In this document: in pieces, positions 50,092 through 55,272 of the stretch | How positions within the stretch are numbered: position 1 is the stretch's first letter | Layout: every line of letters starts with the position of its first letter | Sequence record: MT611523.1 | Length of the DNA stretch: 64,000 nt | Direction: 5' to 3' (one strand) | DNA from: Escherichia phage DK-13 | Program-made: the position numbers and the translations under genes | The notes under the pieces: model-generated | What the model was told of the DNA's origin: nothing | The model's database searches: none | Seen by the model: the letters and a program-made list of their open reading frames with translations, nothing else

Positions 50092-50120
50092 ATTATGCAG
50101 CGGGTCAAGGGGATTGTACA
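50092..50120 (-). promoter_or_regulatory. early promoter (TGTACA, 17 nt, CATAAT) fused to terminator
   Basis: - strand AAAAAAAGTAGTGTACAATCCCCTTGACCCGCTGCATAATGATTCCATACTGAGTTAC. Confidence 0.5.
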
Positions 50121-50130
50121 CTACTTTTTT

Positions 50131-50158
50131 TAAAATAAAAAAGGACCCCGAAGGGTCC
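50131..50158 (-). terminator. rho-independent terminator downstream of gene 52 and the 32-aa ORF
   Basis: - strand GGACCCTTCGGGGTCC then TTTTTTATTTT. Confidence 0.7.
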
Positions 50159-50256
50159 TAGTCTTTATCTATCTTATTACCAATAAACATACCAACAATC
50201 ACACCTGCGATTGCCGCGAAAATACAAAGCAATGCAAACTCAACTCCAAAACTCAT
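50158..50256 (-). CDS. 32-aa hydrophobic membrane peptide, translationally coupled to gene 52 (ATGA)
   Basis: MSFGVEFALLCIFAAIAGVIVGMFIGNKIDKD; SD TGGAGG inside gene 52 3' end; not in ORF track. Confidence 0.35.
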   Translation of the reverse strand: MSFGVEFALLCIFAAIAGVIVGMFIGNKIDKD

Positions 50257-51632
50257 AGAGCCTCCAGGTCATTAAGGTATTCAGTTTTAACATCAGTTGT
50301 CTTCCAGTACTCATGCTCAGCTTTCTTAGCCTTTGCTTCGTCTGCAAGCTTCTTGGCTTCATCAGAGGTCATATGGTAGATGTTCATCGCCACTAACTTC
50401 TCTGCATAATCGCCATATATTTCACTCGCCTGGAGTTCCTCAATCAACTTCTTACGAGGTTTCCCCTGGATAACAACCTTGCCATCAATCACTTCTTTAA
50501 TAAAGAAGACTTTTGCTCGGGCCAGTTTAAATGCTGCTTCAGTTTCTTTAATCTTACTGTCAATTCGCACTTGAACATAAGTCTTACGGACATCAACGAA
50601 ATCGCGAATCAGGTCAAGCGTGTTTGTGTATTCAGCCAGCTTGCCTTTGTGATTAAGCACTGTTAAGTTCTGGGAGAGCTTCTCAATCAGACCAAAGTCT
50701 TTCATGATTTTCTCATGATTTTCTTCTTCAGTACCATCCAACTTGTATTCTTTGCGGAATTTAATCTTAAACCCAAAACCATGCTCGCCACAGTTATCTT
50801 TCCAGGTGATAAAACCTTTCTCTTCCAGCGGGTCCAGGATTTTACTTGTATACTTTTCCAGGTTCCATTGGACCGGGATTTCAGTAATTTCCATTTGGGT
50901 CCTGGAAGTCATTTTGTATGTGCCATGAAGCTCATACTTACCAGGCTCTTCCAGCTCAACCACTTTACCGCGGAATTCTGGATATTTTACTTTCGGAGCA
51001 ACCGGCTCCCGACCTTCCACGATAGCTTTAACAGCTTCCTTGACGTCCTGGAACGAATGAGGAAGAATATCAGTAGCGAAGCCAACAGCAATCCCAGAAG
51101 TGGCGTTAAGTAATACAGTAGGAATAACAGGAAGATAAAAAGCAGGAGGCTTATGTTCTTCATCAGGATGGACCGGAGCATATTCTGTATCCTTAAACAA
51201 GTTATAAAAGTTCTTTGAAACCCTTGCGAATACATAACGAGCTGATGATGCTTCTGGAACCATTCTGGAACCAAAGTTACCTTGCCCATCAAACATGGGG
51301 TATTCATTTTTATATGTTGCGACCAAACCAGAAGTTGCTTCTTCCGCTGATGCTTCGCCATGGTGATAACCATAATCAGCTACGCCACCTGCAATGGAGG
51401 CAACCTTATGGAATTTATTCTTATCGCCACGAGCCAGGTCTAATGCTCTCGCCATAACAAATCTGTGAACTGGTTTAAAACCATCAATCATGTTTGGGAT
51501 GGCACGACCTTCCACAGTGTAGATAGCATATGACAATGCTTCCACATCAATAATGTCTTTTAGACTGCGTGGGTTAAGGGACCCCATGGAATCACTGAAC
51601 TGTTTGGACATCATACTTAAAACGTCAGACAT
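50253..51632 (-). CDS. 52: DNA topoisomerase II medium subunit gp52 (GyrA-like)
   Basis: 459 aa; GyrA/ParC-type N-terminal region DGFKPVHRFVMARALDL; synteny. Confidence 0.9.
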   Translation of the reverse strand: MSDVLSMMSKQFSDSMGSLNPRSLKDIIDVEALSYAIYTVEGRAIPNMIDGFKPVHRFVMARALDLARGDKNKFHKVASIAGGVADYGYHHGEASAEEATSGLVATYKNEYPMFDGQGNFGSRMVPEASSARYVFARVSKNFYNLFKDTEYAPVHPDEEHKPPAFYLPVIPTVLLNATSGIAVGFATDILPHSFQDVKEAVKAIVEGREPVAPKVKYPEFRGKVVELEEPGKYELHGTYKMTSRTQMEITEIPVQWNLEKYTSKILDPLEEKGFITWKDNCGEHGFGFKIKFRKEYKLDGTEEENHEKIMKDFGLIEKLSQNLTVLNHKGKLAEYTNTLDLIRDFVDVRKTYVQVRIDSKIKETEAAFKLARAKVFFIKEVIDGKVVIQGKPRKKLIEELQASEIYGDYAEKLVAMNIYHMTSDEAKKLADEAKAKKAEHEYWKTTDVKTEYLNDLEAL

Positions 51633-51640
51633 ATATCACC

Positions 51641-51781
51641 TTACCAGATTAACGAATGTACTGCCATTATAGCATCAGAAATAAAAAGCACAACCTGTAC
51701 TAATGCAAACATAACTCCATAATACAACGCTACCAATAAGGTAGCAAGGGCTAACGAGTAGCCCAAGATTTTCTTAATCAT
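51641..51781 (-). CDS. 46-aa hydrophobic membrane peptide
   Basis: MIKKILGYSLALATLLVALYYGVMFALVQVVLFISDAIMAVHSLIW; ATG overlaps upstream stop (ATGA); not in ORF track. Confidence 0.4.
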   Translation of the reverse strand: MIKKILGYSLALATLLVALYYGVMFALVQVVLFISDAIMAVHSLIW

Positions 51782-51942
51782 TTATTAATAGCCGATTCAA
51801 GAAATTTAACTAAGGCATCCAGTACAAACCATGTGCAAATAAATCCTGCAAAAAGAGTACTTGGGACCCATACACCTGTAGCAAAAAGAGTCACAGCAAC
51901 GATAACAGCTACGAGCCAGATAAAAGTAAAAACTGATTGCAT
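51778..51942 (-). CDS. 54-aa membrane protein (possible Ac-like)
   Basis: Start moved to ATG after GAGGAAAAC; MQSVFTFIWLVAVIVAVTLFATGVWVPSTLFAGFICTWFVLDAL... Confidence 0.45.
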   Translation of the reverse strand: MQSVFTFIWLVAVIVAVTLFATGVWVPSTLFAGFICTWFVLDALVKFLESAINK

Positions 51943-52031
51943 GTTTTCCTCACAGGCGTCCAAAGACGCCAGTTAATTTCAGATTATGACGATGCCATTG
52001 CATCACATGTTCGTTATGGAAATTACTCATA

Positions 52032-52481
52032 TTAATAGCTCTGTAAAATGAATTTAAAGTTATCAGCAAGCATGCGATTCATTTCTGAAAGGGTCTGGCA
52101 ATCAGAACTATGTGAGCGAGTGAACGCCATCGCAATTTGACCTTTACCATAACCAGTTGTCAGAGGTTTCATTTTAGAAACTGGGACAAACAGGACTTCA
52201 TAGATAACCCCATTGTTCGCCATTGTGCGAGACAGTTGCGAACGCTGTTTGCGGATGTGACTTAATACAGTGTCAAACCCTTGTTGTGAACGTTGGTTAC
52301 CAACATAAAAACGTGCGGCAACAATACGTGATTCGCCTTCACCTTTGACCACGAAATAAAAACCTGGTTGGGTGACAGCTTCTTTAGTTGGACGCCCTGC
52401 AACATAATTGCCATTATGGATGTGAGCAACAGTGGTAGCGCCAGCATTCAGTACGTCACGACGGGTCATGTAAGTAGTCAT
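52032..52481 (-). CDS. hypothetical 149-aa protein, candidate Ndd (nucleoid disruption) by position and size
   Basis: Between gene 52 and rIIB, size close to T4 Ndd; sequence only vaguely familiar. Confidence 0.4.
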
Positions 52482-52520: not shown

Positions 52521-52555
52521 GGGGTCATTATACTCTGACCCCAAGAGTTTGTACA
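52521..52555 (-). promoter_or_regulatory. early promoter with inverted repeat spanning -10
   Basis: - strand TGTACA-aactcttGGGGTCAgag-TATAAT-gACCCC; arms GGGGTCA/TGACCCC. Confidence 0.5.
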
Positions 52556-52967: not shown

Positions 52968-53213
52968 CTATTCTACATCTACTGCGCCATCCCACAAGTC
53001 AACTTCTTCTGATGATTCCATCAGTTCATCAACTGTGAAGCACTCAGTATTATTTTCAATTGCAAAACGCTTCTGATAAAAAGGATAATCCAAACAGTTT
53101 TCAGTGCGCACGGGGCGTTCACTGTTATCCATTAAAGGCGAAATGCGAATCAGTTGTTGACCATTACCCAGGACAAATTTTTCACCAACTGCAATGTCTT
53201 TAAAAAGTTTCAT
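52968..53213 (-). CDS. hypothetical protein
   Basis: 81-aa ORF. Confidence 0.5.
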   Translation of the reverse strand: MKLFKDIAVGEKFVLGNGQQLIRISPLMDNSERPVRTENCLDYPFYQKRFAIENNTECFTVDELMESSEEVDLWDGAVDVE

Positions 53214-53416
53214 TGCTTAGCTCCATTCCAAATTACATCAACAACAGACTTCAAACCATTATCCTGGATTTGTGTGAATACTTCAGCAGCAATCCAGAGC
53301 TGGAAACCAATCATTGCAATGGCACCAATGAAAATCAGGATAATCATTGCCACAATAAACTTGAACATAAAGTCAAAGCGACGATTGGATTTCTGAAAGT
53401 GTGAATTGTAATTCAT
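53210..53416 (-). CDS. small membrane protein (68 aa)
   Basis: Start moved to ATG after TTGAGGATAATATT; hydrophobic segment FMFKFIVAMIILIFIGAIAMIGFQLWIAA. Confidence 0.45.
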   Translation of the reverse strand: MNYNSHFQKSNRRFDFMFKFIVAMIILIFIGAIAMIGFQLWIAAEVFTQIQDNGLKSVVDVIWNGAKQ

Positions 53417-53426
53417 AATATTATCC

Positions 53427-53543
53427 TCAAAAGAAATAGTTAAAGTAAACACGCACATGGTCAATCATAAAAACAATTGGGAAAATGCTCAGGACAACAA
53501 ACAGTACAAACATGTTCCAAATGGCTTTAAGTAACTTTTTCAT
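53427..53543 (-). CDS. 38-aa hydrophobic peptide, not in ORF track
   Basis: MKKLLKAIWNMFVLFVVLSIFPIVFMIDHVRVYFNYFF after SD CTGGAGATGATT. Confidence 0.3.
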   Translation of the reverse strand: MKKLLKAIWNMFVLFVVLSIFPIVFMIDHVRVYFNYFF

Positions 53544-53688
53544 AATCATCTCCAGTAGTTGATAGGTTCATTATACTACAACCACTGGAGATGTATACTC
53601 TTTTATGCAAGTTTCATTAATAATAAACTAAAACAAACGCAAATTACTGGGATACACAATATCCAGATAAGACACCAGGTTTTGCTGC

Positions 53689-53955
53689 TCAAAATATCAC
53701 CTCTTTGATTTCAATCAGACCACGGTGCAATGCAGTGCGAAGGTCATAAAGAATATCTATGCCATCAACATTATCCAGTTTTCCATCAATAAGCTTTTTT
53801 AAATCACGCTTTGATGCAACTAGCGGGCGAAGAAATTTACATTCAGAAAGAGACAACTCTGTAGTAACATCATCACCATCACCTGACGCATCATACATGG
53901 CGGCAACAACCATACCTGTAACTTTGTGCTTGGCGTAATATAATTTGATATCCAT
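53689..53955 (-). CDS. hypothetical protein
   Basis: 88-aa ORF, SD GGAGAAACAAA. Confidence 0.5.
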   Translation of the reverse strand: MDIKLYYAKHKVTGMVVAAMYDASGDGDDVTTELSLSECKFLRPLVASKRDLKKLIDGKLDNVDGIDILYDLRTALHRGLIEIKEVIF

Positions 53956-53974: not shown

Positions 53975-54019
53975 AACTCAGTATGGAATCATTATACATA
54001 GACTCCATACTGATGTACA
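53975..54019 (-). promoter_or_regulatory. early promoter with 10-bp inverted repeat flanking -10
   Basis: - strand TGTACA-TCAGTATGGA-gtctatg-TATAAT-gat-TCCATACTGA. Confidence 0.5.
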
Positions 54020-54951: not shown

Positions 54952-55272
54952 TCATCCTTTAAAATACATATCGGATTTTTCGACAATATCCAAAGAATTT
55001 TGCTCAGCTTGCTCTTGATAATCACTGCCAATATAAACTTTGTCTACATGAACGACGCCATAATAAATTCTGGCACTTTCGGCTAGAGTAGAATGGTCCA
55101 GACTACGAAGTTCTTCTTTCGTTGCAAGAATGATGTCTCTCGCATATAACCGGCCAGTTGACTTTGTAGAAGCATAATGACAATCAACACAATAAACAAT
55201 ATCCGCAACATGATTACCATGCAACCGAATTTCATTAATAGATTCATCGCCAACGTTCATATAGTTAATCAT
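54952..55272 (-). CDS. hypothetical protein
   Basis: 106-aa ORF. Confidence 0.5.
   Translation of the reverse strand: MINYMNVGDESINEIRLHGNHVADIVYCVDCHYASTKSTGRLYARDIILATKEELRSLDHSTLAESARIYYGVVHVDKVYIGSDYQEQAEQNSLDIVEKSDMYFKG

Follow-up and report, generated by a model that had tools for sequence, protein, structure and literature searches.

Small predicted membrane proteins of catalogued T4-like families around topoisomerase gene 52 of Escherichia phage DK-13

The window, i.e., the whole stretch of 64,000 nucleotides of Escherichia phage DK-13 that was analysed (record MT611523.1), comes from a T4-like coliphage (Gaprivervirus) with ~96-97% identity to P896, VR20 and UPEC01. On its minus strand, an early promoter, ndd, stp, an ORF of 54 aa, 52.1 (46 aa), gene 52, an ORF of 32 aa and an intrinsic terminator follow one another (Table 1), in exact synteny with ndd-stp-ac-52.1-52-motA.1 of T4, which confirms an earlier note on this DNA that had pointed to ac and stp of T4 in this neighbourhood. 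The product of gene 52 has 65-70% identity to gp52 of T4, JS98, Marfa and CIP9, and PF06591 is recorded on the ndd gene of locus L070, which is identical to that of the window. The five small ORFs on which the earlier note was based, i.e., those of 54, 46 and 32 aa flanking gene 52 and those of 68 and 38 aa upstream of ndd, were all recovered at their positions.

Table 1. Features of the ndd-gene 52 region of the DK-13 window, with their family or other support
Feature	Position	Strand	Support
ndd.6-like hydrophobic ORF, 29 aa, TTG start	53603..53692	-	phrog_8851 E 2e-15
ndd.4 homologue, 38 aa, N-terminal lysines then one transmembrane segment (predicted)	53427..53543	-	phrog_3098 E 2e-23
ndd.2a-like protein, 68 aa	53210..53416	-	PF23906 DUF7248, phrog_2401
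T4-type early promoter-like site TGTACA-N17-TATAAT, upstream of ndd	52527..52555	-	
ndd, nucleoid disruption protein, 149 aa, first gene of the unit	52032..52481	-	Ndd annotation in relatives
stp homologue, 26 aa, soluble peptide (predicted)	51950..52030	-	PF08133 Nuclease_act
54-aa two-helix hairpin membrane protein (predicted), T4 "ac" slot; phrog_9347, VR7ORF281c family	51778..51942	-	
gp52.1 homologue, 46 aa, single long transmembrane helix (predicted)	51641..51781	-	PF24129 DUF7396
P52, MotA-dependent middle promoter within the 52.1 coding sequence	51666..51690	-	pattern match
Gene 52, topoisomerase II medium subunit, 459 aa	50253..51632	-	
32-aa single-pass hydrophobic peptide (predicted), T4 "motA.1" slot	50158..50256	-	phrog_16377 E 1.7e-9
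Intrinsic terminator AGGACCC-TTCG-GGGTCCT then TTTTTATTTT	50132..50159	-	conserved in relatives

The five peptides are strongly hydrophobic, with best 17-residue Kyte-Doolittle scores of 2.27-3.17, far beyond those of chance ORFs, as only 2-4% of the ATG-initiated ORFs of 25-70 aa in the window have a score of 2.3 or more, and no more than 1.8% one of 2.8 or more. The pN/pS of the small ORFs is 0.06-0.40, compared with 0.41 for ndd, and the frames, whose poor conservation in relatives would have spoken against the earlier proposal, are kept under purifying selection. It may be argued that these ORFs are frames left open by chance in intergenic DNA rich in AT, given that they are very short and that 6 kb contain 102 ORFs of 20 aa or more, so that 32 aa is a common length by chance. 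Conservation of the frames across genera, purifying selection, Shine-Dalgarno (SD) sequences, extreme hydrophobicity and significant profile matches all stand against this explanation, which would appear effectively refuted by the comparative data and retains hardly any probability. The claim that these are genuine small membrane-protein genes is thus borne out by conservation, hydrophobicity and family matches, and the five ORFs are very probably real members of catalogued families of T4-like phages.

The finer points of the earlier description stood in part. The ATGA start/stop overlaps, by which the ORFs were said to be chained, join the 54-aa to the 46-aa ORF (51781..51778) and gene 52 to the 32-aa ORF (50256..50253), but not the 46-aa ORF to gene 52, whose ATG follows after a gap of 8 nt. 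An SD, attributed to each ORF, precedes those of 54 aa (GAGGA) and 32 aa (GGAGG), as well as those of 68 aa (GAGGA) and 38 aa (GGAG), but is lacking before the 46-aa ORF, for which translational coupling at the ATGA overlap probably takes its place. The single helix holds for the 46-aa protein in the AlphaFold2 model and probably also for the 32-aa peptide with its one hydrophobic stretch, but not for the 54-aa protein, which is modelled as a hairpin. The description of the ORFs as unannotated is not borne out, because the exact sequences of four of the five are deposited as DK-13 hypothetical proteins (QMV33896, QMV33898, QMV33899 and QMV33903), and homologues carry annotation in VR7, UPEC01 and P896. 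Mis-started versions do occur in some public records (RZ, CJ20, DK-13 and SP18), in which, for example, the 54-aa ORF is given as 61 aa (RZ) and the 68-aa ORF as 84 aa (CJ20).

The small ORFs are, therefore, already known, in Pfam, PHROGs and GenBank, and the finding is an ordinary one, since they are catalogued small membrane proteins of T4-like phages. They correspond to a cluster of predicted small membrane proteins that has been recognised in T4 since its genome annotation. In the literature searched, no functional study was found of gp52.1, motA.1, ndd.2a, ndd.4 or the other ndd.x genes, gp52.1 being named in one paper only, as a deletion endpoint; nothing usable was found there on T4 ribosome profiling or on membrane association of gp52, and the text of the HIDEN-SEQ preprint on T4 essentiality does not discuss these genes. 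A scan against Rfam returned no family above threshold, and the sub-threshold hits were driven by the terminator hairpin.

The 46-aa ORF matches PF24129 along all of its residues (1-46 of 46; 73.2 bits against a cut-off of 27) and phrog_3595 (E 8e-24), and its product has ~87% identity to T4 gp52.1, with which it shares length, position upstream of gene 52 and the embedded promoter P52, no substantive difference being found. AlphaFold2 models one helix at residues 2-45 (pLDDT 96). P52 consists of a TGCTT box (51690..51686; core TGCTTTT, 7 nt), a 12-bp spacer and a TATAAT at 51671..51666, and the box falls on the codons of V31 and L32 (GTG CTT), which do not vary at synonymous sites among 21 unique 52.1 genes. 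The mapped transcription start of P52 in T4 (165227) also lies within 52.1 (PMC2988021, Table 1). Part of the conservation of 52.1 is, accordingly, due to the embedded promoter and not to the protein.

At the other end of gene 52, the 32-aa peptide has the conserved N-terminus of phrog_16377, MS(F/L)GVEF.LLCIFA, in an alignment of JS98-type and window-type sequences; this family consists of peptides of 32-34 aa that follow gene 52 in Gaprivervirus and Dhakavirus. It resembles motA.1 of T4 in its slot, in the ATGA start on the gene 52 stop, in its hydrophobicity and in being followed by a terminator and the promoter of the motA unit. On the other hand, T4 motA.1 (49 aa, predicted periplasmic or membrane; phrog_3487) is longer and belongs to an unrelated family, the 32-aa peptide having a probable single helix and no relation to it that profile-profile comparison could detect (hhalign probability 1.0%). 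In VR7 and VR26 a second allele, VR7ORF278c (phrog_28787), takes the place of the 32-aa ORF. A 491-aa "multidrug efflux outer membrane protein" that fell into the 90% cluster of the 32-aa peptide has nothing alignable to it and was discarded as a clustering artefact. The terminator stem abuts the stop codon of the 32-aa ORF and ends the unit.

The setting of these two ORFs was compared across T4-like phages by a scan of viral contigs, in which a single gp52 query recovered four loci and an alignment query 62, and counts were made on 45 distinct T4-like loci. Of these, 39 have a 52.1-like ORF immediately before gene 52, and in 36 of the 45 a hydrophobic ORF, drawn from several unrelated families, starts between -15 and +12 nt from the gp52 stop. 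One possible reading of this constancy is that gp52.1, together with the peptide whose start is coupled to the stop of gene 52, anchors or organises the phage topoisomerase, or the replication complex, at the membrane; the 32-aa ORF would be co-expressed with gene 52 from P52, and gp39 and gp52 of T4 fractionate with membranes (literature of the 1970s). Nevertheless, the more distant T4-like phages (L045-L068) have gp52 without any such small ORFs, the adjacency of 52.1 is explained in part by its housing P52, and the downstream slot is filled by unrelated families, which is unlike what is expected of a specific topoisomerase partner. Given also that T4 is viable with a deletion from gp52.1 to rIIB (PMC9712115, Table 1), the tethering role is regarded as highly improbable.

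It may also be proposed that some of these ORFs matter mainly in cis and that their peptides are dispensable, the 46-aa ORF being the carrier of P52 and the 32-aa ORF a translated spacer that would couple ribosomes up to the terminator. The synonymous-site invariance of the MotA box, the abutment of the 32-aa stop on the stem and the interchangeable occupants of the motA.1 slot are in keeping with this proposal. Against it, pN/pS lies well below 1 over the full length of the ORFs, including 0.39 for the 46-aa ORF and 0.06 for that of 32 aa, conservation of 52.1 extends to its N-terminal half, where the promoter does not reach, and the unrelated occupants of the slot stay hydrophobic, so that a role mainly in cis is very improbable indeed.

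The 54-aa ORF (pN/pS 0.40) matches phrog_9347 with E 2e-26 and carries the G(V/A)W(V/I)P turn that separates the two hydrophobic helices in this family, which AlphaFold2 places at residues 2-21 and 28-52 (pLDDT 77). The alignment of phrog_9347 has 11 members, from Gaprivervirus, Dhakavirus, Marfavirus, Kanagawavirus and PEi20-like phages, and the proteins, which are mostly of 51-55 aa (46 aa from the first ATG in Marfa-type loci), remain in frame across genera. A protein homology search returned three hits, and an exhaustive search of 1.84 billion representatives only two relatives, and the family is therefore confined to T4-like phages.

As the ORF lies exactly between stp and 52.1, it might represent a divergent orthologue of T4 Ac that likewise sensitises infected cells to acridines. 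The two proteins share the slot, a similar size (Ac has 51 aa), an early expression context and a predicted two-helix hairpin (from AlphaFold2 for the 54-aa protein and from an ESMfold description for Ac), a raw alignment between them gives a weak z of 3.1, and a C-terminal ND is common to Ac and to some 54-aa alleles. The last of these points is accounted for by the overlapping 52.1 start, which forces an ND ending before the stop codon (AATGATTAA). The comparison of sequences and profiles speaks against orthology: the 54-aa ORF belongs to another PHROG (9347, against 2501 for Ac), the hhalign probability is 0.3%, and the Ac motif TGE(T/S)SV.SQ..AQG is missing in the alignments. The 54-aa family and an ac-like gene, moreover, stand side by side in JS98 and L024. 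An Ac homologue was not detected in the six-frame translation of the 64-kb window, the best match having E 0.13. The 54-aa ORF was thus rejected as an Ac homologue, and orthology is considered decidedly unlikely.

Action of Ac itself on AcrAB-TolC has been proposed but is unproven (preprint bioRxiv 10.1101/2025.06.30.662393; PMC13250531, cited for the Ac model). No likeness of the small peptides to AcrZ, a host peptide that binds AcrB, emerged from local alignment, in which z was 0.9-2.5 relative to shuffled sequences, although this is a weak test.

Directly upstream of the 54-aa ORF lies a gene that the earlier note missed, just outside the range of its coordinates. The stp homologue begins with an ATG 1 nt past the ndd stop, matches PF08133 (E 9e-15; 54.4 bits against a cut-off of 25) and phrog_6763 (E 1e-18), and has a pN/pS of 0.20; its exact sequence is absent from the protein collection, and it is therefore probably unannotated. 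Like T4 Stp, it has 26 aa and directly follows ndd, with 19 of the 26 residues identical, among them the first 11, the differences being F12W, Y13H, N15H and the C-terminus. In T4, the anticodon nuclease PrrC is triggered because Stp inhibits restriction enzymes of type Ic. Within the N-terminal 18 residues, which carry this activity and are near-absolutely conserved (PMC3014915), 15 of 18 are identical to T4 and the changes fall in or next to the mutational cluster at residues 4-14, in a variant that is common to VR7, JS98 and others. PrrC activation, which had been suggested as a test for the membrane peptides, is a role of Stp, and is predicted for the Stp of the window by homology.

Upstream of ndd, the ORFs of 68, 38 and 29 aa are clear homologues of ndd.2a, ndd.4 and ndd.6 of T4, in the same ndd-denB hyperplastic region. 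The 68-aa protein (DUF7248, 87.7 bits against a cut-off of 27; z = 12.5 against T4 ndd.2a) has a basic N-terminus, one predicted transmembrane segment and a conserved C-terminal tail of 28 residues, and differs from T4 ndd.2a, which has 40 aa, in its longer basic N-terminus. The label "ndd.3" that its VR7 homologue bears appears to be a misnomer. The 38-aa ORF aligns to T4 ndd.4 with z = 18 and is deposited as 40 aa in DK-13 (QMV33904) and SP18 and as 38 aa in VR7 and UPEC01; its GGAG is 6 nt away from the 38-aa ATG and directly abuts (0 nt) the alternative start of the 40-aa form. The ndd.6-like ORF, also missed by the earlier note, overlaps the stop of an upstream 88-aa ORF through TTGA, with the SD GAGGTGAT, and the protein collection contains no exact copy of its product.

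Phages that are otherwise nearly identical have exchanged the contents of the 54-aa and 32-aa slots, each as a cassette the size of one gene. The replacement of alleles is sharp, flanks of 94-99% identity enclosing a cassette that is 62-67% identical or replaced altogether, and the 54-aa cassette has its breakpoints at its own start codon on one side and at the ATGA overlap with 52.1 on the other. In UPEC01, a true ac lies between the exact junctions that hold the 54-aa ORF in the window. This pattern resembles the shuffling at promoter early stem-loops (PeSL), in which published examples include the exchange of ndd.4/.5 of T4 (Arbiol 2010; Comeau 2014), in the ORF-sized replacements between close relatives and in the repeated early-promoter motifs that flank small ORFs in the window, recurring on the minus strand at 54019, 53597, 52967 and 50120. 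It differs from it in that the breakpoints of the 54-aa cassette lie within the operon and not at a PeSL, and homology of the flanking genes is therefore the more likely substrate.

Such swapping fits host-specific adaptive roles, and the earlier note had suggested that the peptides act in superinfection exclusion or in the triggering or control of abortive infection. These suggestions, like that of transporter inhibition in the same note, are not supported for the particular peptides of the window. Small early membrane proteins would suit these functions, cassette-like exchange of alleles is the pattern expected of genes in an arms race, and the neighbouring Stp is a known trigger of a defence. 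The exclusion proteins of T4, Imm and Sp, are not known to be related to these peptides and are located elsewhere, however, and the family matches include none that points to this role. As shuffling is a general feature of the hyperplastic regions of T4-like phages and is not confined to exclusion genes (PMC4122927), a role in exclusion or abortive infection is held to be unlikely.

The account preferred here is that the locus is a T4-type prereplicative unit, in which the five ORFs are translated and are non-essential accessory genes of catalogued families, and this is on balance probable. The site at 52527..52555 is likely the start of the ndd-stp-54aa-52.1-52-32aa transcript, and the early promoter very probably drives the whole unit to the terminator past the 32-aa ORF, P52 later re-expressing gene 52 and the 32-aa ORF. 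The small ORFs are very probably translated from their own SDs or through ATGA coupling. According to sequence and structural models, gp52.1, the 32-aa peptide, ndd.4 and the ndd.2a-like and ndd.6-like products are predicted to be single-pass inner-membrane peptides, the 54-aa protein a helical hairpin and Stp soluble. Within minutes of infection, the membrane peptides would enter the inner membrane of the host, where their binding to host membrane proteins would alter permeability, efflux or transport, and the 54-aa hairpin could be a non-homologous functional substitute for Ac, although JS98 and L024 have its family next to an ac-like gene, which speaks against the two being simply equivalent in function. 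The likeliest role of these peptides, put forward tentatively, is that of accessory factors which modulate inner-membrane proteins of the host.

A more speculative extension, which is itself doubtful, is that the position between stp and 52.1 is a "plug-in" slot for swappable, unrelated hairpins of ~50 aa, each with a different host membrane target, with a parallel slot at the gene 52 stop. Besides Ac, its occupants may include two alleles of the 54-aa family, each exchange would run exactly from start to stop codon, and the targets may be host membrane machines, e.g., an efflux pump or a transporter. If this were true, the ac-less phage of the window would be naturally acriflavine-resistant and the 54-aa protein would have a distinct host target.

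Finally, these results are of value for annotation, given that the public record appears to lack both stp and the ndd.6-like ORF, that the 54-aa ORF should not take the label "acridine resistance", and that start sites or product names are wrong in several relatives. The sharp exchange in the ac and motA.1 slots amounts to a natural experiment, in which isogenic-like phages differ in one tiny membrane protein, and such phages may be used to learn what Ac-type peptides do, a question that dates back to the 1960s.

The 4-kb stretch surrounding the small ORFs has 96-97% identity to the Gaprivervirus coliphages P896, VR20, VR26, UPEC01 and SP18, which are T4-like Straboviridae, and every gene of the region is carried by the minus strand. 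All five of the tiny hydrophobic ORFs that an earlier note had reported near the topoisomerase gene 52 were found where that note placed them. T4 presents an identical order (ndd, stp, ac, 52.1, 52, motA.1), with nearly equal gene sizes, and its equivalent of the ndd-denB region, where the 38- and 68-aa ORFs lie, holds ndd.1 to ndd.6. Annotation among relatives (loci L001 and L070) is inconsistent on where gene 52 starts, giving 459, 444 or 443 aa. A good SD (AAGGTGAT) precedes the start at 51632 that yields 459 aa, and this start agrees with the long versions of the gene in Marfa and CIP9.

Features of the ndd-gene 52 region and of the adjoining ndd-denB region, in transcription order
Feature	Coordinates	Strand	Assignment and position
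29-aa hydrophobic ORF, TTG start	53692..53603	-	ndd.6 homologue; phrog_8851, E 2e-15
38-aa ORF	53543..53427	-	ndd.4; phrog_3098 (profile search); ndd-denB region, upstream of ndd
68-aa ORF	53416..53210	-	ndd.2a-like; DUF7248 (profile search); ndd-denB region, upstream of ndd
ndd	52481..52032	-	First gene of unit
26-aa ORF	52030..51950	-	stp homologue; PF08133, 54 bits (cut-off 25); directly 3' of ndd
54-aa ORF	51942..51778	-	phrog_9347 (profile search); after 26-aa ORF
46-aa ORF	51781..51641	-	gp52.1; Pfam DUF7396, 73 bits (cut-off 27); ~87% identical to T4; after 54-aa ORF
MotA-box middle promoter	51666..51690	-	Inside 52.1; TGCTT 51690..51686, TATAAT 51671..51666
Gene 52	51632..50253	-	After 46-aa ORF
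32-aa ORF	50256..50158	-	phrog_16377 (profile search); last ORF of unit
Strong intrinsic terminator	50159..50142	-	T-run next

The membership of the small ORFs in named families is strongly supported by the profile searches, and in the annotation of relatives they appear as 52.1, VR7ORF281c, VR7ORF278c or "hypothetical", "ndd.3" and "ndd.4". Exact matches to four of the five peptides are on record as hypothetical proteins of Escherichia phage DK-13, for which ndd.4 is deposited in a 40-aa form, so the ORFs are neither new nor, as had been supposed, unannotated in public records. The suggestion of wrong starts holds for the records of some relatives, which give 61-, 84- and 40-aa versions, and some relatives also carry wrong product names ("recombination endonuclease subunit", "RNA polymerase binding protein"). 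The small genes that the earlier note had spotted are thus real, but were already known and catalogued. The 90% cluster of the 32-aa peptide (P0019) also lists a 491-aa "multidrug efflux system outer membrane protein"; BLASTP gave no alignment between the two, so its presence is a clustering artefact that provides no link to efflux.

The best 17-residue Kyte-Doolittle windows of the small ORFs range from 2.27 to 3.17, and a score of 2.3 is reached by just 2-4% of the 25-70-aa ATG ORFs of the whole window; hydrophobicity of this degree does not simply follow from AT-rich sequence. The signals described for the cluster were found in part, given that ATGA start/stop overlaps join the 54-aa to the 46-aa ORF and gene 52 to the 32-aa ORF, the 46-aa ORF and gene 52 being 8 nt apart, and that good SDs precede the 54-, 32-, 68- and 38-aa ORFs and none precedes the 46-aa ORF. 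The AlphaFold2 model of the 46-aa protein is a single continuous helix (residues 2-45, pLDDT 96), as proposed, and that of the 54-aa protein is a helix-turn-helix hairpin (2-21 and 28-52, pLDDT 77), for which reason the single-helix label is wrong in this case.

Frames were compared over 62 related loci from viral contigs, found with a gp52 alignment, to which the annotated records of VR7, UPEC01, P896, T4, JS98, Marfa and CIP9 were added. They are preserved over several genera. Pooled pN/pS comes to 0.06 in the 32-aa family, 0.20 in stp, 0.39 in 52.1 and 0.40 in the 54-aa family, against a yardstick of 0.41 in the undoubted gene ndd; poor conservation of the frames, which the earlier note had named as speaking against the ORFs, is therefore not seen. 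Members of the 54-aa family are mostly 51-55 aa long, with a few longer calls, and in Marfa-type loci measure 46 aa when the first ATG is chosen and 55 aa as annotated in Marfa. The Rfam scan of the region returned no family at its threshold. Chance ORFs are effectively excluded, and the small ORFs are, on strong support, real genes with helical, hydrophobic products. Near the denB region, another 54-aa ATG ORF (55083..55247, minus strand) has the top hydrophobicity score of the window (17-residue Kyte-Doolittle score 3.31), and may be a gene in its own right or lie in another frame within a longer gene.

The most informative neighbour of these ORFs, overlooked by the earlier note, is the Stp homologue, which is clearly recognizable and identical to T4 Stp at 19 of 26 residues. 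Through its inhibition of type Ic restriction enzymes, the T4 peptide unleashes the PrrC anticodon nuclease, an activity that resides in its N-terminal 18 residues (PMC3014915); 15 of these are conserved here, the three changes relative to T4 being F12W, Y13H and N15H. Among these genes, homology suggests a function for Stp alone. The protein collection lacks the exact 26-aa sequence, and the DK-13 accessions run on with no gap for stp, so this homologue is probably without public annotation. A perfect palindrome (GGCGTCTTTGGACGCC, 51955..51970; 6-bp stem, 4-nt loop) lies within the last stp codons, a few bases upstream of the SD of the 54-aa ORF, and might modulate translation or mRNA processing. 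In UPEC01, stp is annotated as a 52-aa fusion using an upstream in-frame ATG, probably a mis-start. Directly after ndd, many T4-like phages carry a conserved family of 57-61 aa with two TMs, phrog_5941 (ending ...FERL.k.CG(V/I)(Y/I)(K/E)), which neither the window nor T4 has; it occurs in UPEC01 (L002, 3270-3516), in JS98, Marfa and CIP9, and in many more loci. The 29-aa ndd.6 homologue was also missed previously; its start overlaps the stop of an 88-aa ORF as TTGA, following a strong SD (GAGGTGAT), and its exact sequence was not found in the protein collection.

The 54-aa gene occupies the exact slot of T4-type ac, between stp and 52.1, and both products are hairpins of approximately 50 aa (the 54-aa protein by AlphaFold2, Ac by ESMfold in a published description). 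The ac of UPEC01 is flanked by the same SD (GTGAGGAAAAT-ATG) and the same 52.1 junction. Despite these likenesses, a divergent Ac orthologue is not favoured, and the identification of the 54-aa protein as Ac fails. The 54-aa ORF and VR7ORF281c belong to phrog_9347 rather than phrog_2501, which takes in Ac of T4 and the "acridine resistance" protein of the UPEC01 annotation, and the profile-profile comparison with the Ac family, using alignments built here, gave 0.3% probability. JS98 and one further locus (L024) have both genes, an ac-like one and one of the 54-aa family, next to each other, and the six-frame translation of the whole window contained no Ac-like ORF. The C-terminal "ND" common to Ac and some 54-aa alleles is due to the overlapping 52.1 start (AATGATTAA). 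The 54-aa protein may work like Ac.

The expression signals of the unit are strongly supported. It is bounded by an early promoter upstream of ndd and by the terminator 3' of the 32-aa ORF, and the early-promoter motif TGTACA-N17-TATAAT occurs on the minus strand with first hexamers at 54019, 53597, 52967, 52555 and 50120 (CATAAT at 50120). This repeated motif punctuates the small-ORF region and looks like the promoter portion of PeSL elements known from T4-like hyperplastic regions. The middle promoter is a pattern match in which 12 bp separate the 7-nt core TGCTTTT from TATAAT; it lies within the coding sequence of 52.1 and is equivalent to T4 P52, which was mapped with its start at 165227 (printed as 65227 in Table 1; PMC2988021), a position inside 52.1 in the T4 annotation coordinates. 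Given this, gene 52 and the 32-aa ORF are expressed both early and middle, and stp, the 54-aa ORF and 52.1 early only. The synonymous positions of the MotA-box codons (GTG CTT) are invariant in all 21 unique 52.1 genes, so 52.1 is under dual constraint, as protein and as promoter, and its unusual conservation is due in part to the promoter. Roles of the ORFs purely in cis are not favoured.

As regards function, the region is dispensable in T4, where a gp52.1-rIIB deletion is viable (PMC9712115), and the roles proposed earlier for the membrane peptides are unsupported; superinfection exclusion or defence control is not favoured, nor is a membrane tether for the topoisomerase. Ac makes infection acridine-sensitive, and a block of AcrAB-TolC was recently proposed (bioRxiv 10.1101/2025.06.30.662393, cited in PMC13250531). 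As Ac is the only partly characterised neighbour, it serves as the model for a tentative, low-confidence mechanism in which, early in infection, the peptides would insert in the inner membrane and may bind host membrane proteins, changing permeability, efflux or transport.

Finally, Gapriverviruses match the window at 94-99% identity in ndd, stp, 52.1 and gene 52, apart from gene 52 of VR26 with 92%, and the 54-aa gene presents three states: 96-99% identity in VR20 and VR26, 62-67% in VR7, VR25 and P896, and replacement by ac in UPEC01. Its divergence runs from the start codon to the ATGA junction. The 32-aa slot holds the window allele or VR7ORF278c, with breakpoints at the gene 52 stop and the terminator. 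Comparison of the window with six related loci (L001, L002, L003, L008-L010) presents gene-sized allele replacement between otherwise 94-99% identical phages, its breakpoints falling exactly on start and stop codons or on the terminator, with three occupants in the ac slot and two in the motA.1 slot, at the gene 52 stop. Of 45 distinct T4-like loci flanked by ndd and motA, 36 carry a hydrophobic ORF whose start falls within -15..+12 nt of this stop. These ORFs represent at least seven families with no relation to one another (motA.1, the 32-aa family, and 23-, 26-, 29-, 46- and 59-aa peptides). Such plasticity is known for the hyperplastic regions of T4, the ndd.4/.5 exchange being a published example (PMC4122927). 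An unlikely reading, which would be of moderate interest if true, is that the ac slot is a precise exchangeable site whose occupants are unrelated hairpin proteins of the Ac type, directed at different host targets.
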